A stretch of DNA of 64,000 nucleotides from Candidatus Binatia bacterium (GTDB lineage Bacteria; Desulfobacterota; Binatia; UBA9968; JAJDTQ01): assembly GCA_963664535.1 (NCBI GenBank), contig OY761465.1, positions 1,573,602 to 1,637,601 of the forward strand, in the 5' to 3' direction. Under the pieces are notes generated by a model. It did not search any database. It saw only the letters and a program-made list of their open reading frames with translations, and had not been told where the DNA came from. A program made the translations under genes and the position numbers. This document shows, piece after piece, positions 10,405 to 61,660 of the stretch; position 1 is the first letter of the stretch, and each line of letters begins with the position of its first letter.

Positions 10405-10428
10405 GGGGGCGACCGGGCGGTCGCCCCC
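10405..10428. terminator. strong GC hairpin (GGGGGCGACCG / CGGTCGCCCCC) between convergent genes
   Basis: It is a 10-11 bp perfect inverted repeat between the epimerase (+) end and the ferritin-like gene (-) end. Likely a bidirectional terminator. Confidence 0.4.
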
Positions 10429-10444
10429 ACGGGACAGGACACTA
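10428..10444. mobile_element. solo terminal inverted repeat of the IS630-family/MITE element (CACGGGACAGGACAC+TA)
   Basis: These 15 nt are identical to the right end of the MITE at 22120-22134 and closely match the IS630 element's left-end repeat. No partner end lies nearby. Confidence 0.45.
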
Positions 10445-11110
10445 GCCTCCGGCCGGGTCTTCGAACCGGCGCAGAATCGCGTCCACGTCGACGCCCAACT
10501 CCCGGCCTTCGCGGATCACGCCTTCCTTCTGGCTGGCCCAGCTCTGGACGAACATGTTCTCCAGGAACTCGCGGTTGGCGGGGTCCTCGGCAAAACGGGC
10601 GAGCTTTTCCATGACCATGTCCTCGTGGCCTTCCTCATCGTCCACGATGTCCTTGGCGAGTTGCCGCACCACCGGATCGGGCGTCACGTCCCGCAGGTGC
10701 TGCATGAACACCACCGCGGATTTCTCGGCGATGTTGCAGAGCCGGAACGCCCGCACGTCGCCGGTGAGGAACTGACCGAAGTAGCCGTCGTAGGCATCCG
10801 CGGGAATGTCGTCGGCGGCGCCGCGGCCGTCGAGGTAGTCCTTGATCAGGGCGTAGTGCCTGTACTCGTCGGCGGCCTGCTCGGCCACGTGGGCGCGCTC
10901 GTGGGGCTCCAGCTCGCCGTATTGCAGCAACGCCCTGGTGAAGGCCACGCCGTGGGCCAGCTCCTTCTTGGCCTGCCGCTGCATCAGGCCGACGAACTCC
11001 GCGGTCCGAGGGTTCAACTCCGCCAGCGCCTTGCGGATGGCGATGACGGGCCCCTCCAACTCATCGTGGTATCGGCTCCACAGCGATTCGACGAATTCCC
11101 TTCCGGTCAT
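10442..11110 (-). CDS. ferritin-like domain protein
   Basis: An E...EExH-type diiron-like helix pattern is present (AEQAADEYRHYALI, EEGHEDMVMEKL). The start is MTGREF at 11110. The track ORF extends further upstream. Confidence 0.5.
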   Translation of the reverse strand: MTGREFVESLWSRYHDELEGPVIAIRKALAELNPRTAEFVGLMQRQAKKELAHGVAFTRALLQYGELEPHERAHVAEQAADEYRHYALIKDYLDGRGAADDIPADAYDGYFGQFLTGDVRAFRLCNIAEKSAVVFMQHLRDVTPDPVVRQLAKDIVDDEEGHEDMVMEKLARFAEDPANREFLENMFVQSWASQKEGVIREGRELGVDVDAILRRFEDPAGG

Positions 11111-11311
11111 GGCAATGATTCCTCCACACCCAGGCTGCCTCACACTAACGGGCGGTCCGGGCGGTGTCAATTGGGTGAAGTCCTGGTTGCCCAAGGCCGG
11201 GATCCACCGGCGACTCTTTGCCGCGGGTGCACGTACTGCTACAAGAAACACGAAACAAACACTTCGACTCACGGACACACACCGGCTCGATTCCGAAAGG
11301 AGACTGGACAT

Positions 11312-11684
11312 GGCGGACGACGCGCGCAAGGCCTTCGAGGACGTATCGCTCGGGGCCACAAACAAGGCCTATGACATCATCGCCGAGTTGGACCCGGAAT
11401 ACTCCCGGCACCTTACGGGGCTCTTCGTCGACGGGACCTTCGGGCGCGAGGGGGCCCTCGACCGCAAGACCAAGGAGCTGATCATGGTGGGCATCACCTG
11501 CGCCCTGAACCGGCCCCGAGGGGTGCGGCTTCACAGCGAGCGGGCGCTCAAGCTCGGCGCCACGCCGCGGCAGGTGCTGGAGACGGTGGAAGTGTCGGCC
11601 ATACCCGGGGGCATGCCGGGGCTTTGGCTCGGGGCCGAGACGCTCGACGAGATCATGCGCGAGCAGGGGCTGGAGTTCAAGTGA
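11312..11684 (+). CDS. carboxymuconolactone decarboxylase family protein (AhpD-like)
   Basis: The CMD domain motif is KTKELIMVGITCALNRPRG. An AAGGAG RBS lies upstream of the ATG at 11312. Confidence 0.7.
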
Positions 11685-21196: not shown

Positions 21197-21889
21197 TCAG
21201 GCTTCGTGAGCGCCCCGCCAGCTTCCTCGCCGGGTGGGGTAACGCAATGTCTCCTCCAGGCGCTTCAGGAAAGCCGTCCGAGGCACCTCCCGGGCGCCCA
21301 GACTCAGCATATGCGACGTTGTAACCTGCGCGTCGATGAAATGGAAGCCCCAACCGGCGAGCCGGCCGACCAGCCGCGCCAGCGCCACCTTGGAAGCGTC
21401 CGCCTCGCGGTGGAACATCGACTCGCCGAAGAACCCCCTGCCCAAGGCAATGCCGTAGATGCCTCCGACCAAGCGCCTGCCGAGCCAGCATTCAACCGAA
21501 TGAGCCAGCCCCGCCTCATGAAGGCGGACGTAGGCCCGTTCCATTTCCGGCGTGATCCACGTCCCTTCCTGACCCGGCCGCTCCACCGATGCGCAGGCGC
21601 GGATCACACCCCGGAAGTCTTCATCGAAACCGATTCGAAACTTCCCCTGGTTCAGGACGCGCCGCAGCCGCCTGGAGACGTGAAAGTCAGTCAGGTCGAG
21701 GACGCACCGGGGGTCCGGCGACCACCACAGGATCGGTTGCCCTTCGCTATACCAGGGAAATATGCCCATGGAGTACGCCAGCAGGAGGCGCGCGCTGCCG
21801 AGGTCGCCCCCCACCGCCAGAAGCCCGTTCGGTTCCGCCTCGTGCGGGGAAGGAAAGGCGAGCTCCCGGCTCAAGCGATAGACAGGCAT
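21197..21889 (-). CDS. aat: leucyl/phenylalanyl-tRNA--protein transferase
   Basis: LLLAYSMGIFPWYSEGQPILWWSPDPR is the hallmark Aat motif. Confidence 0.85.
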   Translation of the reverse strand: MPVYRLSRELAFPSPHEAEPNGLLAVGGDLGSARLLLAYSMGIFPWYSEGQPILWWSPDPRCVLDLTDFHVSRRLRRVLNQGKFRIGFDEDFRGVIRACASVERPGQEGTWITPEMERAYVRLHEAGLAHSVECWLGRRLVGGIYGIALGRGFFGESMFHREADASKVALARLVGRLAGWGFHFIDAQVTTSHMLSLGAREVPRTAFLKRLEETLRYPTRRGSWRGAHEA

Positions 21890-21975
21890 GGATGGAACTC
21901 ATGGTGCAGAATCGAGGCAGTGGATGCAAGGAACACCCGTCATCCCGGATCCCGGGTCACGCCCGGGGCAAGCTA

Positions 21976-22134
21976 GTGTCCTGTCCCACGTAATTCTTTA
22001 CCAAGATGCGCAGGATTTCTTGTTGTCGGCAAGGCGCGATGACGAGCAGTGGCGGGCACCACGCGAGGAAGAGCAACGCAGCCGACGACAAGAAAGACAA
22101 GCAGATTGGTAAAGAATTACGCGGGACAGGACAC
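21976..22134. mobile_element. MITE (159 bp) with 29-bp terminal inverted repeats and a TA target duplication; related to the IS630-family element at 59971
   Basis: The left end is GTGTCCTGTCCCACGTAATTCTTTACCAA. The reverse complement of the right end is GTGTCCTGTCCCGCGTAATTCTTTACCAA (28/29 match). TA flanks both ends at 21974-75 and 22135-36. There is no ORF inside. Confidence 0.75.
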
Positions 22135-22273
22135 TAGGTCCGGGGTCCAGGCGACAGAGACTGGTCGGTGCATATCCCATCCGCCTTACGCGGCCTTCGA
22201 TGAGGGCGCCACGGTGATTCAAAGTTTGCGACTTCGGACCGTGATCGTGCTATATTCCCGGCAGGGTATCGCC

Positions 22274-22642
22274 ATGTTCAAGAGAATCGACCACGTAGCC
22301 CTGCATGTCGCGGACCTGGACCGCACCGTCTCCTTCTACGAGGAGAACTTCGGCTTCCGGAAGTATTTCCAGCACGAGGCGACGGCCGGGATGCAGATAG
22401 CCTACCTCAAGTTAGGGGACACGGTTTTGGAGCTGACCCACCGGAGCGAGGGCTCCATGACCGGCTTTCACTTCTGCCTGGAGACCGACAGCTTCGACGA
22501 GACCGTCGCGGAGTTGCAACGGCGTGGCGTGCCGTTGCTGCGGGAGCCTCACGGCACGGCGGCACGGGAGCCGCGGGAGGAAGGCTGGCGGCGGGTCGTC
22601 TTCGGCGGCCCCGACGGCGAGCAGATCGAGCTGCGAGGCTAG
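22274..22642 (+). CDS. VOC family protein (glyoxalase-like)
   Basis: RIDHVALHVADLDRTVSFYEENFGF is the VOC signature. Confidence 0.7.
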   Translation: MFKRIDHVALHVADLDRTVSFYEENFGFRKYFQHEATAGMQIAYLKLGDTVLELTHRSEGSMTGFHFCLETDSFDETVAELQRRGVPLLREPHGTAAREPREEGWRRVVFGGPDGEQIELRG

Positions 22643-23106: not shown

Positions 23107-23694
23107 TCAGCCCGGCGAACGGTAATCGTACACGAGCTCCAGCAACTGCTTGACCATCCGGGCCGTGGCCCCCCAGATGTCCCAGTCCCGATACTGGAAA
23201 TGGTAGATGGGCTCCGACCTCCTGGACAGGCGGACATCCAGGGTCAGGGCGTCCTGCCGCAGCAGAGCGGCCACCGGCACGGAGAACACCTCGGCCGTCT
23301 CCCGGGGGTCGGGACGAAACTCGTACGGGTAGGGAATCAGCCCCACGAACGGGGTCACCAGGAAGTTGTAGCCCGCCACCACTTGGTCGAGCTGGCCGAG
23401 AATGCGCACGTCACCGGGGTCCACGCCGATCTCTTCCTCGGTCTCCCTGAGCGCCGTGGCCACCGCGCCATCGTCGCCCCGGTCGACGCTCCCCCCTGGA
23501 AACGCCACTTGGCCGCCGTGGGAGCTGAGGTTCTCCGAACGCAACGTCAGGATGAGGTAGTCTCCGTCCGGACGTTCCTGTATCGGCGCTAGCACGGCAG
23601 CCGGCCGGAAGTCGTCTCCGGCGACGGCCTTCGGCGTCCGGGTGCGGAGGATGTCGAATCTGTTTCGGTCAGCACCCACGGCGGTAGCAGGCAC
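23107..23694 (-). CDS. NUDIX hydrolase, CoA pyrophosphatase-like
   Basis: The NUDIX box is GGSVDRGDDGAVATALRETEEEIG. The CoA-pyrophosphatase-type upstream motif is VLAPIQERPDGDYLILTLRS. Confidence 0.7.
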   Translation of the reverse strand: MPATAVGADRNRFDILRTRTPKAVAGDDFRPAAVLAPIQERPDGDYLILTLRSENLSSHGGQVAFPGGSVDRGDDGAVATALRETEEEIGVDPGDVRILGQLDQVVAGYNFLVTPFVGLIPYPYEFRPDPRETAEVFSVPVAALLRQDALTLDVRLSRRSEPIYHFQYRDWDIWGATARMVKQLLELVYDYRSPG

Positions 23695-23710
23695 GGAGCA
23701 CTACATACGC

Positions 23711-24040
23711 CTACCCATCCCGCTTCAGCGACTCCGGGAAGTACCGGGACGGGGACCAGACCTGTGCGTTGAAGTTGGTGCAGCCGAGAATCCTCAGTTC
23801 GCGCATGATCCGGATGTAGTCTTGCGACTCGACAAAGCCCGACCACGCCTGGAGGGATTCGAACTCGATCAGAATCGCGACCTGGGGGCTGACCTCCAGG
23901 GGGTTGCGGAGATTGCGGATCTCCCGGACGCCGGGGGCGGCCAGCGTCATGGGCAGCCAGTCGTTCTTGGCCTTGTTGCTGTAGATCGTCAGGTTGGCTT
24001 TCTGGTCCGGCAGGTCCCATTGGACGATGTAGTAAACCAT
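23711..24040 (-). CDS. hypothetical protein (109 aa)
   Basis: The ORF has good coding character and no recognisable motif. Confidence 0.35.
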   Translation of the reverse strand: MVYYIVQWDLPDQKANLTIYSNKAKNDWLPMTLAAPGVREIRNLRNPLEVSPQVAILIEFESLQAWSGFVESQDYIRIMRELRILGCTNFNAQVWSPSRYFPESLKRDG

Positions 24041-24118
24041 AGCTCGTATTTCCTTGTGTTGTTGACCCTGCCTACCCTGACGTCAGCCTACCCTTTCCGA
24101 CCCCCGCCTGTCCCGACC

Positions 24119-24910
24119 CTACATGAGCGTCCTTACGAGTCCGCCGTCGATAAGCAGCGTGGTCCCGGTGATGTAGCTGGCGCGGTCGGAACCGAGAAAA
24201 ACCACCAGGTCCGCGACTTCCTCGGACTGGCCGAAACGGCCCAGGGCGATCTCGGCCTTGCTCTGCTTCTGAACCTCCTCCAGCGGCAGGTTGAGCCGCT
24301 TGGCCCGGGCCACGTTGAGGTTGTGATGGCGCTCGGTGTCGATGCGTCCGGGCATGACGGTGTTGATGAGGATGTTGTCGGGCGCCAACTCGCGGGAAAG
24401 CGTCTTGGCCCAGCCCACCACGCCGGTGCGGAAGGTGTTGGACAGAACCAGGCCCGGGATGGGCTCCTTGATGCCGTAGGAGGTGATGTTGATGACGCGC
24501 CCGGCGCCCGCTTTCTTCATGTGCGGCGCCGTCTCCCGCGTAAGCCGGACCGTGCCCATGAGGCTGAGATTGTACGCCGCCATCCAGTCGTCCTCGCTCA
24601 ACGCGTCGAACGCGCCGAACGGAGGGCCGCCGGCGTTGTTCACCACCACGTCCACCCGCCCGAAGGCATCCACGCTCCGGGCCACGAAGTTGCGGATGTC
24701 GTCGTACTTGGACATGTCCGCCACGGTGGCAAGAACGTCCCCACCCGTGGCCTGCCGAATCTCCTCGGCGGCGCCTTCCAGGGCGTCACCGCCTCTGGCG
24801 CAAATGCTCACCTTCGCGCCTTCCGCGGCGAATCCCTTGGCGATGGCCCGTCCCATTCCCTGACTCGCGCCGCCTACCAGCGCCACCTTGCCTGCCAATC
24901 CCAGATCCAT
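24119..24910 (-). CDS. SDR family oxidoreductase
   Basis: The Rossmann motif is [18 protein letters not shown] and a YxxxK-type region are present. Confidence 0.8.
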
Positions 24911-24976
24911 CCAGATCTCCTCGTTCAGGTTACGGTATCCGCGCGACGGGCCCGATAGCGCCGTCCCGGCGGATCT

Positions 24977-25222
24977 TCACTTCTGTGTCCAATAGATGTT
25001 GTCGTCGAACTCCGGATCCAGCCGCATGAGATAAAGCGACAGCATCCCGTGAGCACCCAGCGGCCGCAACTGCCGCGGATCCTTGCTCTTCAGGGCGGCG
25101 ATCTCTTCGGCGCTCAGGTCATAGTCCGACAAGGCCGTTTCCAGGTCCGAGCGCGCCTGGCTGAGGGTGTCGGGTTTCATCTTCAGGTCGAAAAGAAACC
25201 GGTTCAGGTGGTAGCGGCTCAT
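24977..25222 (-). CDS. extradiol ring-cleavage dioxygenase, LigA-like small subunit
   Basis: RYHLNRFLFDLKMKPD resembles the LigA GYNLNQFAMSL region. The start codon overlaps the LigB stop (TGATG). Confidence 0.5.
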   Translation of the reverse strand: MSRYHLNRFLFDLKMKPDTLSQARSDLETALSDYDLSAEEIAALKSKDPRQLRPLGAHGMLSLYLMRLDPEFDDNIYWTQK

Positions 25223-26085
25223 CAGATCCTCCAGCTCACGAAGCCCCACCCGGTGGCGACGTGGTCGGGCATGTAGAAGCTGTCGGAGGCCGGGGTCTCG
25301 CCCACCGCCCCGACCGTCACCATCCAGTTCAGAAACTCCGAGTTCCCCGACTGCCGCAACTGCTCCAGCGTCAGCCCGGCCAGGGCGGGCCCCTCGCCGG
25401 CGCGCATCTGCCGGAGCAGGCCCTCATCGAAGCTGGTGTCGATCTCGCCGATCCGGGGCGAGCCGGGGAAATGCGACAGTCCGCCGGTGGCGAGCATGGC
25501 CACCCGGTCGGAAGCCGCGTCCGCCACCTCCCGGATCAGGCTCCCCAGCGCGTAGCAACGGGCGGGCGTGGGGAGGGGGTCGATCCACGTGTTGACGAAG
25601 ATCGGCAGGATGGGGATGTCCGGCTCGGGCAGGAGGAAATGCAGCGGCACCATCTGGGTGTGCTGCAGCTCGATGTCCTCGCCGAAGGACAGGTCCAGCC
25701 CGGAGGCGACGCCGGCCTCGAGGATGGCCCGGCCCAGCTCCGGGTGATTCCGGTAGTGGAAGTCGTACCGGGTGAACCGGCCGCGGACCTCGTCCGACAG
25801 CGTGACGAAGAAAGTCGGGATGTTGTCGAAGAAGAAGTTCACGAACTGATCGTTGGCGACCACGATCAGCACGTCGGGCCTGGCGGCATCGAGGTCGCGG
25901 CGAAGCACCGAGAAGGCGTGCTCCGCATCGGTCCGAAGCTTCCGCTGCACTTCCAGGGACGGCTTGCCGCCGGCCGCCTGCGGCGCCATGCGGTAGTGCA
26001 GCGTCATGAACTCCTCCCACTCGGAGCCCGGGTCCAGTAGCATGTTGGGGGCGTGGCTGGCGGCCAACGCGGCGACAAACGGCAT
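25222..26085 (-). CDS. class III extradiol dioxygenase, LigB-like catalytic subunit
   Basis: The LigB fold motifs are ASHAPNM and HFPGSPRIGEID. The start is MPFVAALAASHAP at 26085. Confidence 0.7.
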   Translation of the reverse strand: MPFVAALAASHAPNMLLDPGSEWEEFMTLHYRMAPQAAGGKPSLEVQRKLRTDAEHAFSVLRRDLDAARPDVLIVVANDQFVNFFFDNIPTFFVTLSDEVRGRFTRYDFHYRNHPELGRAILEAGVASGLDLSFGEDIELQHTQMVPLHFLLPEPDIPILPIFVNTWIDPLPTPARCYALGSLIREVADAASDRVAMLATGGLSHFPGSPRIGEIDTSFDEGLLRQMRAGEGPALAGLTLEQLRQSGNSEFLNWMVTVGAVGETPASDSFYMPDHVATGWGFVSWRI

Positions 26086-26255
26086 TTTTCGGTCCCTTCC
26101 CTTGCGGTTCCTTCTAAACGCTCTGGGCAAAAGATGGTATAATCGGCGCCTGGAAATTACAACTGAACTCCGGATTTCAAGCAAGTTCAACGCACCGGTG
26201 CTCCCTGTCCCAGGGGAAAGTCGGGACCAGACACCGTGGTGATGAGGACGGCCCT

Positions 26256-27221
26256 ATGAGACTGATGGTGTGCGCTACGTTGATGGTCGCTGGGTTGGTT
26301 ACGCTGGTCCCTCCGTCCACCGCGAACGAGTGGCAGCCGGGCGACACCGTTTTCGAATATCGCGAGCCCTCGGGCGAGGGAACGGAACGCGAGCCCGGGT
26401 CCACCATCATCGGAGCCCCGCGCGTACACGTCGCGAAGTCCAGCGACACCCTCCTGGACATCGGCCGCCTGCACCACCTGGGGTACCTGGAGATCACGCG
26501 GGCGAACCCCGGCGTGGATCCCTGGCTGCCGGGCGACGGGTCGCGGATAAGCATTCCCGCCCAATGGATTCTTCCCCGCGGTCCACGGGAAGGGCTGGTC
26601 CTCAACATCGCCGAGATGAGGCTGTACCACTACCTGCCCGACTCCAGGGTCATGACCTTTCCGTTGGGGGTCGGCGTGGACGGCCAGGAGACTCCGGCCG
26701 GAGAGTACCGCGTCGGACAGAAGCGGACGAATCCTACGTGGTACGTGCCGAAATCCATCCAGGCCGAGATGGAACGCCCGCGCAAGGTCGTCCCTCCGGG
26801 GCCGGACAACCCGCTGGGCAAATACTGGATGCGTTTGTCCCACACCACTTACGGCATCCACGGCACCAACAACCCCTGGGCCATCGGCCGCCGCGTGACT
26901 CACGGCTGCATCCGGCTCTATCCCGAGGACATCGAGTACCTGTATCCGCGGGTGCCCAAAGGCACGCCCGTACGGGTGATCTACCAGCACGCCAAGGTGG
27001 GCTTGATGGACGGAAAGGCCTACGTCCAGGTGTACCGCGACGGCCGGGCGAGCGACACCGAGCTCATGGCCGACCTCATCCGGCAGATCCTGGAGCTGAA
27101 GCTGAGCGTCGATCTGCGAGCGTTGAGAGAGATGCTGCTGGAACTGCCCGACGGGGCCATGACCCCGCTGCCTCTGAAGGAAGCCGCGGTCATCGACGCC
27201 ACCGCGCACGCAGCCCCCTGA
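26256..27221 (+). CDS. L,D-transpeptidase (YkuD domain) with an N-terminal LysM-like segment
   Basis: The catalytic motif is HGTNNPWAIGRRVTHGCIRL. There is a signal peptide. Confidence 0.8.
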   Translation: MRLMVCATLMVAGLVTLVPPSTANEWQPGDTVFEYREPSGEGTEREPGSTIIGAPRVHVAKSSDTLLDIGRLHHLGYLEITRANPGVDPWLPGDGSRISIPAQWILPRGPREGLVLNIAEMRLYHYLPDSRVMTFPLGVGVDGQETPAGEYRVGQKRTNPTWYVPKSIQAEMERPRKVVPPGPDNPLGKYWMRLSHTTYGIHGTNNPWAIGRRVTHGCIRLYPEDIEYLYPRVPKGTPVRVIYQHAKVGLMDGKAYVQVYRDGRASDTELMADLIRQILELKLSVDLRALREMLLELPDGAMTPLPLKEAAVIDATAHAAP

Positions 27222-27242
27222 AGGAGCCGCCACGCGGCCGCA

Positions 27243-28112
27243 TCACGTCCGGTACTTCTCGTCCAGGGCGTACTTCTCCTCGAGCCCCACGATGTCGTGG
27301 AAGTCGTCGAACGGCAGCAGCCGGTCCATGAGGGCCTCCGCGGTGCCGGCCTCCCGGAGGTTGGTGTAGTAGCTCTTGAGCGCCTGGGCCGCTGAATAGA
27401 GCGGACCCACGGGCCAGACGATGAGGGCGAAGCCCAGCTCCCCGAGCTCCGCCGGCGTCATCAGCGGCGTGACCCCACGTTCGATCATGTTGGCCACCAG
27501 CGGACCCGGCACGTTGCGGGCGATCTCCCGCATCTCCTCGCGGCTTTCCGGAGCTTCGATGAACACGGCGTCGGCGCCGTTCTCCTTGAAGGCGATGCCG
27601 CGCCGGATGGCCTCGTCGAGGCCCAGGGCTTGGCGCGCGTCGGTGCGGGCCACGATGAAGAGGTCCCCGTCAGCCTTGGTCGCCACCGCCGCATTGAGCT
27701 TCTTGAGGTACTCTTCCAGCGGCACCACCTGCTTGCCCCTCATGTGCCCGCAGCGCTTGGGCCACACCTGGTCCTCCAGGAACATGCCCGCCGCCCCGGC
27801 CCGCATCAGCTCGTTGACGGTACGGACCACGTTCACCGCGTTGCCGTAGCCGGTGTCCGAGTCCACGATGACCGGCGTCGGCACCGCGCCGCAGATGCGG
27901 TAGATGGTGCTCAGCATCTCGGTCTGCGTGAGGATGCCGAAGTCCGGCTCGCCCAGCATGGTCGCCGAGATGCCGTAGCCGGTGGTGAAGATGACGTCGA
28001 AGCCGGCGCGTTGGGCGATGCGCGCGCTCAGGGCATCGTACACCCCGGGCATGACCAGGGTTCCGTTCCGGTCGAGGGCTTCCTTGACTCTGCTCATTTG
28101 GACCTCCAGCAT
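27243..28112 (-). CDS. isocitrate lyase/PEP mutase family protein (PrpB/carboxyvinyl-carboxyphosphonate phosphorylmutase-like)
   Basis: The ICL/PEPM barrel signatures are VMPGVYDALSARIAQRAGFDVIFTTGYG and KRCGHMRGK. An alternative start is at 28097. Confidence 0.75.
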   Translation of the reverse strand: MLEVQMSRVKEALDRNGTLVMPGVYDALSARIAQRAGFDVIFTTGYGISATMLGEPDFGILTQTEMLSTIYRICGAVPTPVIVDSDTGYGNAVNVVRTVNELMRAGAAGMFLEDQVWPKRCGHMRGKQVVPLEEYLKKLNAAVATKADGDLFIVARTDARQALGLDEAIRRGIAFKENGADAVFIEAPESREEMREIARNVPGPLVANMIERGVTPLMTPAELGELGFALIVWPVGPLYSAAQALKSYYTNLREAGTAEALMDRLLPFDDFHDIVGLEEKYALDEKYRT

Positions 28113-28548
28113 GTTTGGTTTGAAGAGAGTGACCCGAACACCAAGCAGGACGCGAAGGAAGTCATCGTCTTTCAGAGTATCCTTCTGAACTGCACGGGAG
28201 TCGAGTCTATCTCATATAGTGACGCAAGACGATGCGCGACCGCACCATTGTAAAACAGGGCTCAACCCATCGCCGTGTGGAGAACTGCGCCATTGGTTCC
28301 AGATAACCGTCAATAAAATCGGTCGGAAACCCTCTGTTCGGATCACGACTACGTAACGCAGGCTCAATTCAAAGAATCTGCTGTCTCTGGGACATGAGGC
28401 AGGAACCTTGAACCGGGTGACCTCAATCAAGTATCTTGACATCCTAGGGACCGTAGGGCGGCGGTACGGAAGACAGGTACCCTTTGGAAAAGCAGAACAG
28501 GCGTGAAAGCCCTAGCCGGGCAACCTCGGTAAGAACAGGGAGAAGAGC

Positions 28549-31245
28549 TTGAGCACGGAAGATCCGTTGGTGACAGCGTTGAGCCTCTCGTCCGGAGCAG
28601 AATTTCAGAAATGCGCGCTCCAGATCAACCCTCGGCACTATTCAGGTACGTATCGCGGCCAGCAGGCAACGCTCGGCGATGACGAATACGTCAGCGCACT
28701 AATAGACAAGGCAATGGACCTCGGAATCACAGTACTGGCGGTAACGGATCACAATCACGTAGGAGGCGTGGATGCGATCAGAATCGCGGCGCAAGAGCAG
28801 AAAATTCACGTGTTTCCTGGTTTCGAGTTGTCATCGACCGAAGGTATCCACGTCCTTTGCCTTTATTCACCAGAAACCACAGAGGAACAACTAGGTCGTT
28901 TTCTCGGCGAGTTCGGCATTCGTGCCACTACGACGTCAAGTGACTTGTGCGACAAGTCTTTCTCCGAACTCCTCGCATGCGTGCATGATCAGGGAGGCAT
29001 TTCCATCGCGGCGCATGTCACACATGACAATGGGTTGCTGCGGACCCTCCAGGGACAGCCTCGGGTCCGTGCCTGGAAGGACGAAAACCTCTACGCCATC
29101 CAAATCCCCGGACCGGTCAACGACCTTCCGGACGACATACGGCCGATCGTTCAAAATAGGAATGGCGACTATTTCCGGGAATACGCACCCGAGCCCGACC
29201 TTGCCATAGCGACAGTTAACGCAAAGGATGTCGCGGCGCCAGACGACCTCGCTGACCCATCGGCTACTTGCTGGATCAAAATGTCCGAGGTCAGCATGGA
29301 AGGCCTGCGCCAAGCATTTCTCGATCCCGGGTCGCGAGTCCGGCTGAACAGCGATCCGGTGCCTGAGGAGCACTCTGAGCTTGTCGCCATGGGATGGCAA
29401 GGGGGCTTCCTGGACGGCACAATGTTCCACTTCAATCCAAATCTGAACGTCTTGGTGGGAGGTCGTGGTGCAGGCAAGTCAACGGTAATCGAAAGCTTGC
29501 GTTATGTACTCGGACTAGAACCGTTAGGTGAAGAGGCCCAATCGGGCCATGCAGGTATTCTCCGTAACGTCCTCCGTAATGGTACCAAGGTGTCTCTCCT
29601 GGTTCGTTGCCATCGCCCAGGGCCGCGAGACTACCGCATCGAACGCACCGTCCCTAATCCGCCGGTCGTACGCGATACTCAGACAGGCGAGGTGCTAAGC
29701 GTAGCGGCGACCAACATTTTTCCCGGTGTAGAGGTCTATGGGCAGCACGAGATTTCGGAACTCACAAAGAGTCCGGAAAAGCTGACCCGGTTGCTTGAGC
29801 GGTTTGTGGAGCGAGACGATTCCGTAGGCAACCAGAAGCGCGAACTGCACCGCGAACTGGAACGCTTGCGTAGTCGGATTCTCGCGGCTCGTAAGGAGCT
29901 CAGCCAGATAGGGGAAAGACTGGACGCTCTGCCAGGACTTGAGGGGACGCTACGGCGCTATCAGGAAGCGGGGTTGGAACAGGACCTGAAAGAACAAAGT
30001 CTTCTGGTACGGGAGGAGGGTGTCCTCGAAACCATACCCGAGCGCCTACAACCGTTGCGGTCCTGCTTGGATGGGTTGCAGCAGGAGTTACCGATTGACC
30101 GGACTTTCCTCTCCCCAAAAGCTCTGGAAGATCTGCCTGGGAAAGCGATCTTGGCTGGTGCCAATCAAGTGTTAGCGAAACTGAACGCCGATCTGGAGAA
30201 AGTGTTACCCGACTTCACTCGGGCACTCGACAAGGCCGAACAGGGTCTCCAAGGTGTCCATCGACAGTTCGGCGAGCGTAGGACCGCGGTGCAAGCAGCG
30301 TACGAGAAGAAGCTTCGGGAACTCCAGAAAGCCAGGATCGACGGTGAGGAGTTCATACGGCTCCGACGTCGGATAGAAGAGTTACGACCCCTCAAAGAAC
30401 GGCAAACGACTCTAGCTCGGATGGAGACGGACCAACAAGAACGACGCCGGAATCTGTTGGCTGAATGGGAGGACATTAAGGCAGCAGAGTTCCGGGCGCT
30501 GGAACGCGCCGGCAAACGTGTCACGCGGAAACTCGAAGGCCGTGTTCGTGTACGTGTCGAGTTTGGCGGAAACCGCGAGGCATTGTTCCAACTCCTCCGT
30601 GATGAGATAGGCGGACGACTGTCCGAGACGATCGACATTCTGCGACAGTCCGACAACTTGTCTCTCAGCGCTTTTGTAAAGGCTTGTCGCCAAGGTCCGG
30701 ACATTCTTCTCACGGAATTCGAAATCTCGGGTGTTCAAGCAGATCGTTTGGCTCAGGCCCCCGACGAGATTCTCATGCAGGTTGAAGAGCTTGACCTCCC
30801 GTCCATCACAAAGATCGAGCTGAACACGGCACCTCCTGACGAAAGGGAAAACTGGCAAGCGCTCGATCAGCTCTCCACTGGCCAAAAGGCAACTGCTGTA
30901 CTGTTGCTCTTGCTACTTGAGTCCGATGCACCACTCGTCGTGGATCAACCGGAGGATGATCTCGACAACCGCTTCATCACAGAAGGAGTTGTCCCGCGTA
31001 TGCGCGACGAGAAACAGCGTCGCCAGTTTCTTTTCTCGACTCATAACGCAAACATTCCAGTCCTCGGAGATGCCGAACTCATCCTAGGTCTCAGCGCATC
31101 GGGAGAAGCGGAAGAAGGGAACGCGAAGATTGCACCGGAACACATGGGTTCTATCGATGCTCAAGCTGTGAGAGAGCTTGTGGAAGAGTTGCTCGAAGGT
31201 GGCGAGGACGCGTTCAAGCGCCGGCGGCGCAAGTACGGATTCTAG
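28549..31245 (+). CDS. PHP-family phosphoesterase domain fused to an SMC/Rad50/RecN-like ABC ATPase with a long coiled coil (Ppl-like architecture)
   Basis: The N-terminus carries PHP motifs (AVTDHNHVGG, AAHVTHDNG). The ATPase part has Walker A GGRGAGKST, a ~300-aa Leu/Glu/Arg-rich coiled coil, signature LSTGQK, Walker B/D-loop VVDQPEDDLD and an H-loop FSTHN. It has a TTG start with a GGGAG RBS. GC is lower than the flanks. Confidence 0.7.
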   Translation: MSTEDPLVTALSLSSGAEFQKCALQINPRHYSGTYRGQQATLGDDEYVSALIDKAMDLGITVLAVTDHNHVGGVDAIRIAAQEQKIHVFPGFELSSTEGIHVLCLYSPETTEEQLGRFLGEFGIRATTTSSDLCDKSFSELLACVHDQGGISIAAHVTHDNGLLRTLQGQPRVRAWKDENLYAIQIPGPVNDLPDDIRPIVQNRNGDYFREYAPEPDLAIATVNAKDVAAPDDLADPSATCWIKMSEVSMEGLRQAFLDPGSRVRLNSDPVPEEHSELVAMGWQGGFLDGTMFHFNPNLNVLVGGRGAGKSTVIESLRYVLGLEPLGEEAQSGHAGILRNVLRNGTKVSLLVRCHRPGPRDYRIERTVPNPPVVRDTQTGEVLSVAATNIFPGVEVYGQHEISELTKSPEKLTRLLERFVERDDSVGNQKRELHRELERLRSRILAARKELSQIGERLDALPGLEGTLRRYQEAGLEQDLKEQSLLVREEGVLETIPERLQPLRSCLDGLQQELPIDRTFLSPKALEDLPGKAILAGANQVLAKLNADLEKVLPDFTRALDKAEQGLQGVHRQFGERRTAVQAAYEKKLRELQKARIDGEEFIRLRRRIEELRPLKERQTTLARMETDQQERRRNLLAEWEDIKAAEFRALERAGKRVTRKLEGRVRVRVEFGGNREALFQLLRDEIGGRLSETIDILRQSDNLSLSAFVKACRQGPDILLTEFEISGVQADRLAQAPDEILMQVEELDLPSITKIELNTAPPDERENWQALDQLSTGQKATAVLLLLLLESDAPLVVDQPEDDLDNRFITEGVVPRMRDEKQRRQFLFSTHNANIPVLGDAELILGLSASGEAEEGNAKIAPEHMGSIDAQAVRELVEELLEGGEDAFKRRRRKYGF

Positions 31246-31254
31246 GGCAACAAA

Positions 31255-32631
31255 GTGACGAAGACAGAGCTTCTGGAGCTGATTGCAAACGGCGAGAACT
31301 CGGGCGTGGACTTTAAGCGCGATGTAATTGACAACCGCGCGCTCGCGAAGGTCCTCGTGGCATTCGCCAACCTGCGGGGTGGACGCCTCCTCCTCGGGGT
31401 GGACGACGATGGAACCGTCCGCGGCCTTACGCGGCAAGATCCACGGTTGGAAACAGAAGAGGATGAGACTGGTCCGCACACGTACCAAGCCCTTGAGGAG
31501 TGGGTGATGCAGGCGTGTCGCGACAAGATCCGCCCCGAGATCATCCCCTACTTCGAAACCTTCCGAGAAGTCGCGCCTGGACGTGACGTGGCTGTCGTAC
31601 AAGTCGGTCGCGGGTGGGGTGTACACCACGTGTGGCACAATCAGCATCGCACCTACTACATCCGCGTCGGGACGTTGAGCCGTGAGGCTAGCCCGGAAGA
31701 ACTGGCGCGGATGTTTCAACAGCGAGGTGCCTTTCGCTTGGAACTACAACCGGTGTCAGGCACTTCGATCGACGACTTGGACCCTCGACGCCTTACTCAA
31801 TATTTTGCGGAGATACGAGAACAGCAAGTCCCGGCATCGAATCCACCTGAGGAGTGGCGTATCGAAACAACGGCATGGGCACGGAACGAGGACCAGAAAC
31901 ATTGGCGGGAACTTGTCGATCAGAGGGAACGAGATTGGTACCGTGAACAGGCAGCCGCATGGAAATCATTGCTCGTCAACACCGAGTTTCTCGCCGAAGA
32001 TGATCCGCAACCTGGGACCGTGGCCGGACTTATGTTGTTTGGTAGCAACCCCAGTCGATTCCTACCCCAAGCGAAGATTGACGCCGCCGCCTACTTCGGT
32101 TCGGTGAAAGACTATGCCGCAAAGGAACGGCGCACGCTGCGGGGACCGCTCGTCAGTTTGAAAGGTGTCGACGGTTCCGTGCTGGAGCCTGGCCTCGTGG
32201 AACAGGCAGTGGAGTTTGTCAGACGGAACATCCAGACGGTGCATCTGGAAGGGGGGATACGCCGCCAAGAACGGTGGGACTACCCGGTCGAGGTCGTTCG
32301 TGAGGTGATCGTCAACGCGGTCGTTCACCGCGATTATCTGCTGTCGAGTTCGGACATCGAACTCAGTGTCTATTCCGACCGGCTTGAGGTCATCTCACCC
32401 GGGCGCTTGGCGAACGGCATCACCACAGAGCGAATGCGAGTCGGATGCAGAAGCGCCCGCAACGAGCTGCTGAAAGACGCCATGCGAGACTACGGTTACC
32501 TCGAGCACATGGGTATGGGCGTACCACGAAAGATCATTCGGGGTATGCAGGAGCAGAACCGCACCGATCCCGACTTTATCGAGGACGACGAACGGTTCAC
32601 TGTACGATTGTGGAAGGATCCGCGGGCCTAG
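31255..32631 (+). CDS. COG2865-type protein: Schlafen-like AlbA_2 (divergent-AAA) N-domain plus a C-terminal HATPase_c_4/RecG-C-like domain
   Basis: The N-terminal motif is ENSGVDFKRDVIDNRALAKVLVAFANLRGGRLLLGVDDDGTV. The C-terminal motif is REVIVNAVVHRDYLLSSSDIELSVYSDRLEVISPGRL. It starts 9 nt after the PHP-ATPase gene. Confidence 0.65.
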   Translation: MTKTELLELIANGENSGVDFKRDVIDNRALAKVLVAFANLRGGRLLLGVDDDGTVRGLTRQDPRLETEEDETGPHTYQALEEWVMQACRDKIRPEIIPYFETFREVAPGRDVAVVQVGRGWGVHHVWHNQHRTYYIRVGTLSREASPEELARMFQQRGAFRLELQPVSGTSIDDLDPRRLTQYFAEIREQQVPASNPPEEWRIETTAWARNEDQKHWRELVDQRERDWYREQAAAWKSLLVNTEFLAEDDPQPGTVAGLMLFGSNPSRFLPQAKIDAAAYFGSVKDYAAKERRTLRGPLVSLKGVDGSVLEPGLVEQAVEFVRRNIQTVHLEGGIRRQERWDYPVEVVREVIVNAVVHRDYLLSSSDIELSVYSDRLEVISPGRLANGITTERMRVGCRSARNELLKDAMRDYGYLEHMGMGVPRKIIRGMQEQNRTDPDFIEDDERFTVRLWKDPRA

Positions 32632-32873
32632 GCGTTCCGAGGATGGTCACAGGCACGGCTGGACTTGAGAAGATCCAATACCGCCAATATTCAAACAACA
32701 GATTTGGAGCGGTTCTGAATCGAGACACAGGCCACGAATCTTCGACAACTCGCTACTGCGTGTCCTTCACCGTTGAAGCCAGGCGAGTTCCAAGTGAACA
32801 ATCGGGCTGAAGCCCCTGACACGACGACGAGCATCCCACGCTGGCCATACGATACGCGTGACCAGTTAATCCG

Positions 32874-33158
32874 CTACTCCGCGGGAATCTCCACGATCAC
32901 GTCGCCGAGCACCTTGGCGACGCAGCCCAGACGCTCGGCGGCATCCGCGCTGAGCATGGACAGCGTCAGCTCCTCATTGTCGTCCATGGGGCTCAGGTTG
33001 TTGTCTCCGGCGAGGATCTTCACCCGGTCCGTGCCGCAGATGGCCTCGGTGCAGTCGTGGCGAAGGGTGACGCCGTTCCGTATGGCCGCCACCAGGATGG
33101 TGGTGCCGTCGTCGACCTCGAAGCTCTGTCCCAGTGGCATGAAAGTGACTCTAGGCAT
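32874..33158 (-). CDS. small hypothetical protein, ferredoxin/beta-grasp-like fold with an incomplete Cys set
   Basis: The N-terminus (RVTFMPLGQSFEVDDGTTIL, HDCTEAIC) is 2Fe-2S-ferredoxin-like, but only three Cys are present. Confidence 0.35.
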   Translation of the reverse strand: MPRVTFMPLGQSFEVDDGTTILVAAIRNGVTLRHDCTEAICGTDRVKILAGDNNLSPMDDNEELTLSMLSADAAERLGCVAKVLGDVIVEIPAE

Positions 33159-33246
33159 GGCGGGTTTGTAGGAGACGCTTGCCGGGTTGTCAAGAAGTTG
33201 CGTCCGATGGGTCGGCGCCCCATCGGCGTCTCAGGGTTTTCGTACA

Positions 33247-33269
33247 GGGGCGGGCTTGAAACCCGCCCC
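33247..33269 (-). terminator. GC-rich hairpin GGGGCGGGcttgaaaCCCGCCCC abutting the stop codon of the MBL-fold gene
   Basis: An 8-bp perfect stem immediately follows the minus-strand gene ending at 33269. There is no clear U-tract. Confidence 0.3.
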
Positions 33270-33991
33270 TACAAATCCACCACCAGGCCGTCCTCCGCCG
33301 TCTCCACCGGCAACGACCGGCGCCGGGCCAGCATCTCTTCTCCCATGTGCGTCAGGATCAGCCGCTTGCACTCCAGCCGCTCACGGCGCGCGGCGATCTC
33401 CACGTAGCTCATGTGCGAGGGAGACGGCGCGTCGTAGTGGCAGCACTCGCAGATGAACAGGTCGGCGCCCCGGCTGTGGGCGATGAACTGGTCCGTCCAG
33501 CTCGAATCCCCGGAGAAGAGCACGGTGCGGCCCGCCACCGTCACCCGCAGGCCCAGCGACACGGCGTCGGTCTGGTGCGGCACCCGGAAGCCCAGCACCT
33601 CGGCGCCGGCCACGGCGGTGACGGTGCCGGGTTGCAACTCGGTGAAGAGGGCGAAAGGCAGATCCTTCTCGCCGTACATCACCTTCATGAGATCGCGGAC
33701 GCGGGTCTCGGTGCCGGGCGGCCCGGCCACCGCGAGGGGGCGGGTCCGAGGCTTGTCGTAGAGGTAGTGGATGAAAAAGAACGGCAGTCCGCCGAAGTGG
33801 TCGCCGTGCAGATGGCTCAGGGTGACGGCGTCGACATCGGCGGGGTCCAGGCCCGCGCGCCTGAGGGCGGGGAGCGTGGAGGGGCCGCAGTCCAGCAGGA
33901 AGAGGCGCGGGCCGTCCTCCAGCAGATAGGCGGTCTGGTTTCTGCCGCCGCTGCCGAAGGCGTCCCCGCATCCGAGGAAATGGACTTTCAC
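33269..33991 (-). CDS. MBL-fold metallo-hydrolase
   Basis: The beta-lactamase-fold metal-binding motif is HLHGDHFGG. It is 240 aa. Confidence 0.75.
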   Translation of the reverse strand: MKVHFLGCGDAFGSGGRNQTAYLLEDGPRLFLLDCGPSTLPALRRAGLDPADVDAVTLSHLHGDHFGGLPFFFIHYLYDKPRTRPLAVAGPPGTETRVRDLMKVMYGEKDLPFALFTELQPGTVTAVAGAEVLGFRVPHQTDAVSLGLRVTVAGRTVLFSGDSSWTDQFIAHSRGADLFICECCHYDAPSPSHMSYVEIAARRERLECKRLILTHMGEEMLARRRSLPVETAEDGLVVDL

Positions 33992-34137
33992 GATGCCGAG
34001 ACTAACAGCGCCGGATCGACCTTGGCAACGCGTGCCGGGTCTGCCACATTCCCCTGAGTATCCCGGTCTTGTTTCGGGGCCGCGTCCGCGGCGCGGCGAA
34101 GCCCGATCGCACTAACTTCGCACATGAAGTCGACTTC

Positions 34138-59970: not shown

Positions 59971-61124
59971 GTGTCCTGTCCGATTAATTAGTTGAAGAAC
60001 AATGGAGTGTGTCGTACCATGGGAAGAAAGGACAGGAGGGCACCATGGCACGACCCCCAGCGGCGATCGTTTTGAGCGAGGAGGAGAAGGCGGAGCTAGA
60101 AAGATGGAGTCGGCGGCGCAATACGCGAGCGGGTCTTCATCTACGAGCGGGCGTGGTTTTGGATTGCGCGCGAGGTTACACCGGGGAGGAGGTGGCGAAG
60201 CGACACCACACGAGCCAGCAGACGGTGTCGAAGTGGCGGGGGCGGTTCGCCCGAGAGCGACTGGCGGGACTGTCCGATGCGGTGCGAAGCGGCCAGCCGC
60301 GCAAGCACAACGACGTACGGGTGCAGGAAGTGTTGGACGCGACACTGAATCGACGGCCGAAGCATGCCACGCACTGGAGCGTTCGGAGTTTATCCGAGGA
60401 CCTGGATGTGCCACGGGATTTCGTTCATCGTGTATGGCGGGCATTCGGGCTCAAACCTCACTTGTCTCGGAACTTCAAGCTATCCACCGATCCGCACTTC
60501 ATCGACAAGGTGCGGGACGTGGTGGGTCTTTATCTGAATCCGCCGGACAACGCGCTGGTGTTGTGCGTGGATGAGAAAAGCCAGATTCAGGCATTGGACC
60601 GTACCCAACCCGGTTTACCGCTGAACTACGGCACACCCGAGACCCGGACCCATGACTATCGGCGCTATGGCACCACCACGCTGTTCGCCGCACTGGAGGT
60701 GGCTACGGGTCGAGTGGTGGGCAAGCTGCACCGCCGGCACAGAAGCCAAGAGTTCACCGCTTTCTTGCGCCACATCGACTCGCAGGTCCCGGCCGCCTTG
60801 GAAGTCCACCTCATTCTCGACAACTACGGCACCCACAAGACCACCCAAGTCAAGAACTGGCTGTTGCGACACCCCCGATTCCACTGTCATTTCATCCCCA
60901 CCTACAGTTCCTGGATGAACTTGGTGGAGCGCTTCTTCGCAACCTTGACCGAACACCAGTTACGCCGCGGCACCTACCGCTCCGTGGTCGCTCTGGAGAA
61001 AGCCATACGAAATTACCTCGACCTGCACAATCAACATCCCAAGCCGTTTCGTTGGACCAAGTCCGCTGACGCCATCATTGACTCTGTCACCAGTGTTATT
61101 AAACGAATTAACCAGACACCACAC
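59971..61124 (+). mobile_element. IS630-family insertion sequence (1154 bp) with imperfect ~21-bp TIRs and a TA target-site duplication
   Basis: The left end is GTGTCCTGTCCGATTAATTAG. The reverse complement of the right end is GTGTGGTGTCTGGTTAATTCG (16/21 match). TA flanks both ends at 59969-70 and 61125-26. It contains a single DDE transposase gene. Confidence 0.7.
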
Positions 61125-61127
61125 TAG
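60045..61127 (+). CDS. IS630-family transposase (HTH + DDE)
   Basis: The N-terminal HTH is [21 protein letters not shown]. The DDE region spans [14 protein letters not shown] ... [10 protein letters not shown] ... [19 protein letters not shown] precedes the ATG at 60045. The stop lies within the right TIR. Confidence 0.85.
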
Positions 61128-61199: not shown

Positions 61200-61660
61200 C
61201 TAGGCGGAAGGGAATCGGCTGAGAATGCGCCTTTGTTTATTGAAGCATTCGACGATGCCAGCGAGGAACTGGAGCGACGCCATTCCGAATTGGAAATGCC
61301 CGGAGTCGGACGAATCAGCCGTATCTTGACGGATGCTGGCTCGGGTTTCCAGATAGACCCGCCGAAGCTTGTCGCCGCCCGGCGGGTGGCCACAGTCCAT
61401 GACCGCTACCAGGTACAGGAAGCCAGGCCGGACGGGGATATGGGTGGTGTACGCGGTCCAGATCTGATTGGGCCGGTCGATGGCGAGGCCATGGAGAAGG
61501 ACGGGGTGGGGTTTGGTGGTCCGCGATGCCTGGTAGATGGCCTGTAGTCTCATCAACCGCAGAATTGATCGCACCCAACGGGCCAGTGTGTCGCGTCTCC
61601 GTTTCGACGCGGGAGAAACCGTGACCGATGCTGCCGCGCGTGCTATATTCCATCGGTTCC
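61200..61660 (-). pseudogene. IS3-family transposase (OrfB integrase-core) remnant
   Basis: IDRPNQIWTAYTTHIPVRPGFLYLVAVMD matches the IS3 rve core, and the C-terminal GIVECFNKQRR matches the IS3 tail. It is truncated and degraded, with no intact catalytic region. Confidence 0.55.

Follow-up and report, generated by a model that had tools for sequence, protein, structure and literature searches.

A 159-bp palindromic element of Candidatus Binatia is probably a non-autonomous IS630/Tc1-mariner-type MITE of a widely dispersed family

The divergent spacer between aat and a Glyoxalase/VOC gene in a 64,000-nucleotide stretch of a Candidatus Binatia genome (this whole stretch is called the window in the following) contains a 159-bp element that is framed by inverted repeats and by TA on both sides. 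The question is what kind of element this is, which transposase moves it and whether, as a reading of the sequence alone had proposed, it derives from the autonomous IS630-family element that lies 38 kb downstream. From our point of view it is probable, at roughly 85%, that the window copy is a non-autonomous MITE of the IS630/Tc1-mariner type, and that it belongs to a family which is abundant in Candidatus Binatia, to our knowledge an uncultured phylum known only from MAGs, and in related uncultured bacteria. The coordinates of the features are collected in Table 1.

Table 1. Positions, in the window, of the 159-bp element, its parts, its neighbours and the sites compared with it.
Feature	Position	Strand	Remarks
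MITE copy	21976-22134		159 bp; between aat and Glyoxalase/VOC gene
Left TA target copy	21974..21975	.	junction C-TA-G
Left TIR, 29 nt	21976..22004	+	reads GTGTCCTGTCCCACGTAATTCTTTACCAA
Inner left hairpin arm	22016..22030	+	partner 22081-22095; helix 2
Asymmetric central core, 63 nt	22025..22087	+	hairpin apex
Inner right hairpin arm	22081..22095	+	partner 22016-22030
Right TIR, 29 nt	22106..22134	-	reverse complement reads GTGTCCTGTCCCGCGTAATTCTTTACCAA
Right TA target copy	22135..22136	.	junction CTAG
aat, Leu/Phe-tRNA-protein transferase (Leu_Phe_trans)	21200-21889	-	
Glyoxalase/VOC gene	22274-22642	+	
Solo MITE-type tip	10429..10444	-	GTGTCCTGTCCCGT + TA; adjoins REP-like GC hairpin 10405-10428
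Empty site, single TA	23712..23713	.	GGGTAGGCG; L035 MITE copy at 7706-7864
Empty site, single TA	33270..33271	.	TTGTAGGGG; L035 MITE copy at 2730-2888
Autonomous IS630-family element	59971..61124	+	1154 bp; TA in CTAG; IRL/IRR 23/30
IS630-family transposase gene	60045..61127	+	360 aa; HTH_23/28/29/32 + DDE_3

The two TIR arms agree at 28 of their 29 positions, with CTAG at both junctions, and a repeat search extended them to 37 nt at 92%, CTAG included. The same search revealed a second, inner inverted repeat which lengthens the palindrome (Table 1). Within the window the 29-mer occurs at these two sites only, where shuffled sequences would lead one to expect 0.00. Folding, which the sequence-only reading had proposed as a check, turns the single strand of the element into one long hairpin of -97.4 kcal/mol (z = -14.5 relative to shuffles). 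The only ORF that spans the element (43 aa, 22006-22137) is broken in other copies by +1/-1 and 21-59-nt frame-shifting indels, so that the element has no coding capacity. The covariance models of Rfam 15, run against window positions 21500-22600, gave no match at E <= 1. The element is hence small (<~300 bp), non-coding, bounded by TIRs and flanked by a target duplication, as a MITE should be, and the sequence-only reading described its size, its near-perfect arms, its TA duplication, its non-coding core and its location between the two genes correctly. The first ~26 nt of the TIR recur as the conserved terminus throughout the family and, judged from this conservation, are the presumed binding site of the transposase.

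How widely the family is dispersed became apparent when one genome per prokaryotic species was scanned with the first 21 nt of the MITE terminus. The scan returned 46 loci from ~10 MAGs that are labelled as Candidatus Binatia, 'Deltaproteobacteria' (sponge bins) or 'Thermodesulfobacteriota', and a metagenome scan with the terminus added 30 contigs, which makes a total of 76 MITE-bearing loci. Paired ends lay 155-218 bp apart in 34 copies of the first scan, 21 of them being exactly 159 bp long, and with BLAST added the full copies number more than 40, in over 40 contexts that are unrelated to one another. Chromosomes that are rich in copies are OZ220712.1, OZ241976.1, OZ244070.1, OZ253480.1 and CBDBFB01. 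The other 159-bp copies are 92-98.7% identical to that of the window, and copies from different genomes (mean identity 91.9%) resemble each other as closely as copies within one genome (91.1%), compared to 82-85% for the syntenic backbone. As such, the description of the element as a MITE in the sequence-only reading is borne out by a dispersed, multi-copy family in the lineage. The 64-kb window itself holds one full copy and one remnant, and an nhmmer profile search of the window gave no further diverged copy.

All solo ends among the 76 loci are either truncated MITEs or contig ends. Those in the interior of contigs represent internally deleted derivatives, for example mini-elements of 41 and 47 bp, whereas terminus matches at contig ends run on into the MITE interior, which is the usual assembly break induced by repeats. 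Both the deleted derivatives and the contigs broken within copies are what an active repeat family typically leaves behind. In soil metagenomes the same terminus (GTGTCCTGTCCCRCGTAATTnTTnAC) surrounds entirely different, GC-hairpin-rich cores, and these sequence matches point to a wider superfamily beyond the Binatia family. In the literature, the terminus string turned up in primers only, and the family terminus is undescribed in the papers searched, in Rfam and in the plasmid and viral collections. The family thus is apparently undescribed, even though bacterial MITEs of <200 bp that have TIRs, TA at their termini, a TSD and transcripts which form hairpins are well known as a kind (PMC2229807).

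The flanks of 120 distinct ends carry A at -1 (95%), T at -2 (89%) and C at -3 (92%) and are random farther out, while terminus positions 21-26, which lay outside the search pattern, are still 84-91% conserved. TA stands on both sides of nearly all 34 paired copies, in agreement with the duplication claimed from the sequence. Filled and empty sites provide the complementary evidence. A locus of another Binatia MAG (L035), syntenic with window positions 23576-36157 at 82-85% nucleotide identity, carries MITE copies at two sites at which the window has a single TA (Table 1), and at both of them the alignment is colinear if the element is taken out together with one TA. Conversely, the aat-VOC spacer is filled in the window, where it measures 384 bp, and element-free in four relatives (Aat identities of 94, 91, 89 and 88%), where it measures 95-122 bp. 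The difference of ~280 bp comprises the 161 bp of MITE plus TA and, alongside, ~77 and ~37 bp that are also specific to the window, because of which the junction is inexact and the exact empty site of the window copy cannot be reconstructed. These window-specific ~115 bp, when tested as a repeat, had no other copy in the sequences searched.

Within the aat-VOC spacer the insertion occupies the hypervariable middle, and the promoter-proximal blocks at both start codons, which are conserved in all five genomes, lie outside of it. We found neither a promoter nor a terminator consensus inside the element and no T-run after the hairpin. The outward promoter or terminator activity that the sequence-only reading had considered hence finds no counterpart in the element. 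Under the MITE reading, an IS630/Tc1-mariner-family DDE transposase supplied in trans would bind the ~26-nt terminal repeats and excise the element as double-stranded DNA, and integration into a TA, preferably within CTAG, would duplicate this TA. The window copy would have landed in the middle of the spacer, away from the promoter-proximal blocks, and would probably be close to neutral for both neighbours.

With G as its first and C as its last base, the element restores CTAG at both of its junctions, so that a TAG stop codon survives an insertion into its TA. A junction-anchored, GC3-based heuristic, which is no annotation, places a junction TAG at the end of a coding-like open frame of >=100 codons for 20 of 41 copies. 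As a baseline, 25 of the 121 remaining CTAG sites in these loci terminate such a frame (odds ratio 3.7, Fisher p = 0.001). The remnant in the window is placed likewise, since the minus-strand ORF 10442-11365 ends on a TAG that consists of the TA and the terminal base of the remnant. In a genome of 64% GC, the window offers only 43 CTAG sites in its 64 kb. From our point of view, the placement at stop codons probably reflects target availability and tolerance rather than active targeting.

The longer variants of ~180, 207 and 218 bp consist of the 159-bp element with small GC-rich palindromes nested in the central core, at the hairpin apex, such as GGGGCGACC-nnnn-GGTCGCCCC and TCCTTCGACTTCGC...CTCAGGACG. 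The former palindrome is also free-standing in several loci, and once in the window (10405-10428). An orthologous pair of copies with 97% identical flanks (L045/L043) differs by two nested palindromes, and nesting therefore continues in resident copies. Directly beside the free-standing palindrome of the window lies a solo tip that the sequence-only reading did not contain. It matches the 13-mer of the MITE end at 10432-10444 and has C at position 12, as does the MITE, whereas the IS630-family element of the window has G. By its sequence, we take this tip to be the remnant of a second MITE copy.

The reading given so far accounts for anatomy and dispersal, but does it also account for how the copies vary? 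Thirty copies from ~9 genomes, retrieved by their terminus only, were aligned in one orientation. In this alignment the 63-nt core is nearly invariant and more conserved than the arms, and the arm segments between terminus and core are variable in a compensatory fashion. In the MFE structure 98.4% of the stem cells are paired, and changes on both sides occur at 15 pairs, as opposed to 4.3 +/- 1.2 after column shuffling and 3-7 when the partners are slid by 1-3 columns. Covarying columns 41-49, with 112-120 as their partners, lie beyond the 24-30-bp footprint of a transposase, and helix 2 shows compensatory changes at columns 44/117 and 46/115.

The intermediates of these changes are not symmetric. 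Among single-sided changes, G·T outnumbers A·C by 21 positions to 5 (binomial p = 0.0025) and by 55 cells to 5, and in the independent ~180-bp class the respective numbers of positions are 11 and 2. Structure prediction favours the RNA that corresponds to the plus strand of the window over its complement in 39 of 40 distinct copies, the mean difference in stability being 10 kcal/mol. Since the copies share ancestry, we count this as one property of the family rather than as the outcome of 40 independent tests. If a transposase recognised the double strand, or if the copies decayed neutrally, the intermediates should be symmetric, unlike those seen in the stem. A plain parasite that moves by double-stranded cut-and-paste hence leaves the strand-asymmetric intermediates and the invariant core without explanation. 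We regard both features as real but unexplained, with selection on RNA or ssDNA during propagation, strand-specific deamination and templated correction within the palindrome as candidate causes.

One could speculate that the family has an added function, namely that it constitutes a mobile and structured single-stranded module of fixed polarity in which the stems are selected and the 63-nt core is functional. Such a module might stabilise the 3'-UTR, or provide a processing site there, upon delivery to stop codons, or else be a nucleic-acid partner that the element requires in order to propagate. The pairing, the double-sided changes beyond the footprint, the excess of G·T, the greater stability of the top strand and a core that is conserved despite the terminus-only retrieval all fit this idea, as does the position of 20 of 41 copies directly at the 3' end of a gene. 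ERIC and Correia elements provide precedents for effects at the RNA level (PMC2229807). Nevertheless, we regard this function as possible but rather improbable. A role in host mRNA should depend on orientation, as it does for ERIC (PMC2229807), but copies lie in either orientation to the mRNA of the adjoining gene with similar frequency (11:9, p = 0.82), by which host-mRNA orientation is also rejected as the cause of the G·T excess. Replication-strand bias fares no better as a cause, since the polarity of the copies is also unbiased relative to local GC skew (18:22, p = 0.18), which is a noisy proxy.

Further points weigh in the same direction. In four orthologous pairs the divergence of the resident copies equals or exceeds that of their flanks, so that purifying selection in situ on whole resident copies is not seen there; in the one pair that was analysed in detail (L036/L002) the differences are concentrated in the arms. 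Covariation in the arms is to be expected anyway from the matching of both ends to one transposase and from templated correction of a palindrome, and the counts are not independent, given the common descent of the copies. Rfam contains no matching family, and the small palindromes that nest within the core of the longer variants indicate that part of it tolerates disruption. A covarying stem of ~48 bp, an almost invariant core and a strong one-strand excess of G·T together form a classic signature of functional single-stranded structure. That the family is more than selfish DNA, namely a mobile RNA or ssDNA module delivered precisely to TAG stops, can nevertheless be put forward as a tentative idea at best. 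If it were true, the module would work at the RNA level at the 3' ends of genes, or its own propagation would require it as a nucleic-acid cofactor or intermediate. The latter would be unexpected for an IS630-type element, as the known mechanism is a double-stranded cut-and-paste without a hairpin intermediate.

Returning to the non-autonomous MITE, we have to ask whether the autonomous IS630-family element in the same window is its parent, i.e. whether the MITE is an internal-deletion derivative of the element at 59971-61124 that is mobilised by the transposase of the latter. The IS630-family element has an intact transposase ORF that encodes both HTH and DDE_3 domains and ends in a TAG stop formed by the TA duplication and the flanking G. 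As the sequence-only reading had noticed, the first 11 nt of the MITE are identical to the left tip of this element, and inclusion of the TA extends the identity to 13 nt. This 13-mer, TAGTGTCCTGTCC, has four exact matches in the window, where uniform chance would give ~0.002. Both elements use the same target, TA within CTAG, a preference that is known for IS630 itself. In addition, a TAATT box follows the tip in both with an offset of 1 nt (CACG-TAATTC-TTTACC in the MITE and GAT-TAATTA-G or GGT-TAATTC-G in the window-type elements).

The significance of the shared tip changes when further elements are considered. A second IS630 lineage (the L009-type), the transposase of which is 48% identical, is present in multiple copies in MITE-rich genomes, and every one of its autonomous copies sits in cTA|...|TAg. 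We compared ten IS630 termini from the two lineages and from their relatives (78-81% and 84-91% protein identity), all of which begin with GTGTnnTGTC(C). The MITE tip matches them at 8-11 of 11 positions, including 10 of 11 for both termini of the 48%-identical lineage. Because the tip is common to all lineages sampled, it is a signature of the IS630 subgroup and not evidence of descent. Beyond the tip, terminus positions 12-30 align to the IS of the window with p = 0.066 (IRL) and 0.026 (IRR; both uncorrected, global alignment relative to shuffles), and the IRR of a relative aligns equally well (p = 0.014, uncorrected). None of these values withstands correction for ten comparisons, although the window-type termini are slightly closer to the MITE than some termini of the L009-type. 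Local alignment of the 101-bp MITE interior to the IS showed no similarity beyond that of shuffles (p = 0.35 and 0.91).

What would be expected of a deletion derivative, that is TIRs which are near-identical over their whole length and shared internal sequence, is accordingly replaced by an 11/11 tip that is followed by divergence. The transposase of the IS630-family element ISY100 performs double-stranded cut-and-paste alone, its footprint covers the whole ~24-bp IR via the N-terminal HTH domains, and ~30 bp per end suffice in cis, with integration of IS630-family elements occurring only at TA, which is duplicated (PMC2170065). The conserved ~26 nt of the MITE terminus match this footprint and this requirement in cis. 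As IS630-family transposases contact the whole IR (PMC2170065), identity of the tip alone is no predictor of mobilisation. Within the 76 MITE-bearing loci, which are what this comparison covered, the transposase of the window type is furthermore absent. Among the top 120 clusters of window-type transposases none had a MITE-rich chromosome as its longest contig, which is a weak argument as clusters hide members. The clade of this transposase is widespread at 75-82% identity, with MAG labels that include Gammaproteobacteria, Woeseiaceae and Pseudomonadales.

Taken together, we regard descent of the MITE from the IS 38 kb downstream, as put forward in the sequence-only reading, as unlikely. That reading had named two observations which would speak against it, namely that the element is unique and that its likeness to the IS is confined to the tip. 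The former does not apply, since the element is multi-copy in the lineage, whereas the latter essentially does. Cross-mobilisation of the MITE by the IS of the window is possible but unsupported. Judged from the features of its class, which are the basis of the assignment to a transposase, the MITE belongs to the TA-targeting IS630/Tc1-mariner mechanistic class, and we infer that the mobilising transposase is most likely a third lineage of the IS630 subgroup to which the IS of the window belongs and not demonstrably this IS. No transposase adjoins any MITE-type end in the 76 loci of the genome and metagenome scans, and an autonomous element with the ~26-nt terminus was not found in these loci, in a plasmid collection (BLAST), in viral contigs (scan) or among the relatives of both IS630 lineages. 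A resident IS with ends that read GTGTCCTGTCCCRCGTAATTCTTTAC would identify the parent.

The assignment to the IS630 class also depends on which bases belong to the target. IS5-type transposases have YTAR targets, and one could therefore read the junctions as a 4-bp duplication of CTAG around an element TGTCC...GGACA that is moved by an enzyme of this type. CTAG stands at both junctions of most copies, which is compatible with either reading, and empty sites containing CTAG would look alike under both. We nonetheless consider this reading very unlikely. Where the outer flanking bases deviate from C and G, they differ independently on the two sides, while the TA and the adjacent G...C remain constant (L003, tTA...TAa; L014, aTA...TAg; L020, tTA...TAg; L027 and L040, cTA...TAc), and a 4-bp CTAG duplication is therefore excluded. 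The empty sites of the window moreover read GTAG rather than CTAG, and the tips of the resident IS630 elements likewise begin with this G immediately behind the TA. Least credible of all are a REP/BIME-like unit that owes its mobility to a Y1 (RAYT) transposase and a hairpin of local origin with a regulatory or terminator role, as the long stable hairpin and the small GC-rich REP-like palindromes that are present in these genomes and nested in MITE copies are outweighed by the TA duplication, the length of 159 bp and the 29-nt TIRs (REP/BIME units being Y1-associated palindromes of 20-40 nt without target duplication), by the filled/empty polymorphism, the tips shared with IS630 and more than 40 unrelated contexts, and by a hairpin without a T-run behind it or a terminator-like site inside.

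Several bacterial elements resemble the Binatia MITE in kind. Nezha, a cyanobacterial MITE with TA duplication, is derived from IS630 and its parent IS has been identified. It is similar in being a TA-duplicating bacterial MITE attributed to an IS630-family transposase and differs in that no parent IS was found for the Binatia MITE. RUP, the repeat unit of pneumococcus, is a 107-bp non-coding palindromic MITE at TA with ~100 intergenic copies that has been attributed to IS630-Spn1 (PMC2229807). It likewise is a small palindromic element inserting at TA whose assignment to IS630 is based on TIR similarity and target. The TIRs of RUP closely match an identified resident IS, whereas no IS matching the ~26-nt terminus was found for the Binatia MITE, which further differs by its length of 159 bp, its phylum, its conserved asymmetric core and its frequent insertion at stop codons. 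With IS630, ISY100 and Tc1-mariner elements in general the MITE shares the TA duplication and IRs of ~24-30 bp, and with the IS of the window and the L009-type also the GTGTnnTGTC tip and the target. It lacks a transposase, and its inner terminus is unlike that of every autonomous element sampled.

The Correia or NEMIS elements of Neisseria are flanked by TA, have TIRs of ~24-26 bp and occur in size classes of 107 and 155 bp that differ by an internal block; their long-hairpin transcripts are processed by RNase III, and no parent transposase is known (PMC2229807). The likeness to the Binatia MITE, which concerns described structure, a relationship in sequence not being expected, comprises the TA flanks, the TIRs, the size classes and the hairpin. 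Correia elements carry an IHF site and promoter-like ends, whereas no promoter-like site was found in the Binatia MITE, the size classes of which arise from small GC palindromes nested at the hairpin apex. The ERIC or IRU elements of enterobacteria are 127-bp imperfect palindromes with TA termini and a TSD that are co-transcribed with their neighbours and affect mRNA stability depending on orientation (PMC2229807). Their TIRs offer only ~7 bp of contiguous pairing, they belong to another lineage and have another sequence, and the polarity of the Binatia MITE is, in contrast to the orientation dependence of ERIC, unbiased relative to the neighbours. Wilson and Sharp reportedly found in 2006 that ERIC elements are as conserved between species as within species, with compensatory changes that suggest an RNA structure. 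In the same way, the Binatia MITE is conserved alike within and between genomes and shows compensatory changes.

Overall, the present analysis describes what is, as far as the literature searched, Rfam and the plasmid and phage collections are concerned, the first characterised MITE family of Candidatus Binatia. Its copies have practical consequences, as they break short-read assemblies, in which contigs end inside them, and mark recent insertion polymorphism between related genomes. Regeneration of CTAG and TAG lets the MITE occupy the exact 3' ends of genes without damage. The analysis further corrects an inference that a shared tip of 11 nt easily invites, since this tip identifies an IS630 subgroup and does not testify to parentage. 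Lastly, the strand-asymmetric covariation around an invariant core makes the family a tractable case in which a possible RNA or ssDNA constraint on bacterial MITEs, a question that also concerns ERIC and Correia elements, can be addressed.

Binatia genomes contain scattered, independent copies of a small palindrome of the REP-like type, GGGGCGACC-nnnn-GGTCGCCCC, with a conserved stem and a variable loop, and the same palindrome is nested at the hairpin apex, in the central core of the ~180-bp variants of the 159-bp MITE. A gain of nested palindromes can be followed in two MITE-bearing loci that carry orthologous insertions within 97% identical flanks (L045 1176-1334 vs L043 4758-4975), one resident copy having acquired two nested ~30-nt palindromes (TCCTTCGACTTCGC...CTCAGGACG). 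In the window, a perfect GC hairpin, GGGGGCGACCGGGCGGTCGCCCCC, immediately adjoins a solo MITE-type tip between two convergent genes; tip and hairpin together have the appearance of a hairpin-bearing ~180-bp variant that has undergone internal deletion.

At other loci, full MITE copies are directly abutted by tip remnants with which they have the TA in common (L014: ...GGACAC-TA-GTGTCCTGTCCG...), and a 41-bp mini-element is made up of two MITE tips. Together these arrangements are consistent with MITEs re-targeting their own regenerated CTAG, in addition to internal deletions. Further MITE subfamilies were found on soil metagenome contigs, which have the ~26-nt left terminus in common and possess unrelated, GC-hairpin-rich cores. 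Some of these subfamilies end in the right tip CCGTGGTGTCCCGC, which mirrors the difference between the IRL and IRR of the resident IS630 elements (CC vs GG at positions 5-6).

Features of the window and of MITE-bearing loci (L-numbers) from the genome and metagenome scans
Feature	Location	Strand	Remarks
Solo MITE-type tip (ACGGGACAGGACAC, then TA) and adjoining GC hairpin	window 10405-10444
NAD-dependent epimerase gene	window 9431-10378	plus	convergent gene flanking solo tip and hairpin
ORF	window 10442-11365	minus	second convergent gene; TAG stop supplied by solo-tip junction
REP-like palindrome	L040 7945-7977; L005 1083-1111; L022 2843-2864; L008 3133-3154; L046 4144-4166; L066 4142-4163; window 10407-10426
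Tip remnants / mini-element	L014 1534-1548; L013 1635-1670; L004 4231-4271
Soil MITE subfamilies	L057 7943-8080; L064 2391-2530; L065; L053; L069; L075
898-aa protein	within window 28110-32872		weak PHP match; SMC_N/AAA_23 and AAA_21 'AbiEii-like' ATPase matches
458-aa protein	within window 28110-32872		Schlafen AlbA_2 and HATPase_c_4
124-aa ORF ('...NQIWTAYTTHIPVRPGFLYLVAVMD...')	window 61200-61574	minus	just downstream of IS630 transposase ORF

The ~37 and ~77 bp immediately flanking the window's MITE (21937-21973 and 22137-22215) have no match elsewhere in the sequences compared, and four relatives lack them, as they lack the MITE itself, between aat and VOC; the window's lineage has therefore gained ~280 bp and not the MITE alone. 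A further segment of ~4.7 kb (28110-32872), ~400 bp away from one empty MITE site, is missing from the syntenic Binatia MAG locus L035 and looks like a small defence-type island.

The transposase ORF of the window's IS630 element reads through the right IR, and its TAG stop (61125-61127) consists of the duplicated TA and a flanking G. The product of the neighbouring 124-aa ORF is without a Pfam match but resembles, by eye, the beginning of an IS3-type integrase core. Relatives of the IS630 transposase (window 60045-61124) at 75-82% identity include MAGs recorded as Gammaproteobacteria, Woeseiaceae and Pseudomonadales, which suggests that this IS630 lineage has spread recently between phyla.
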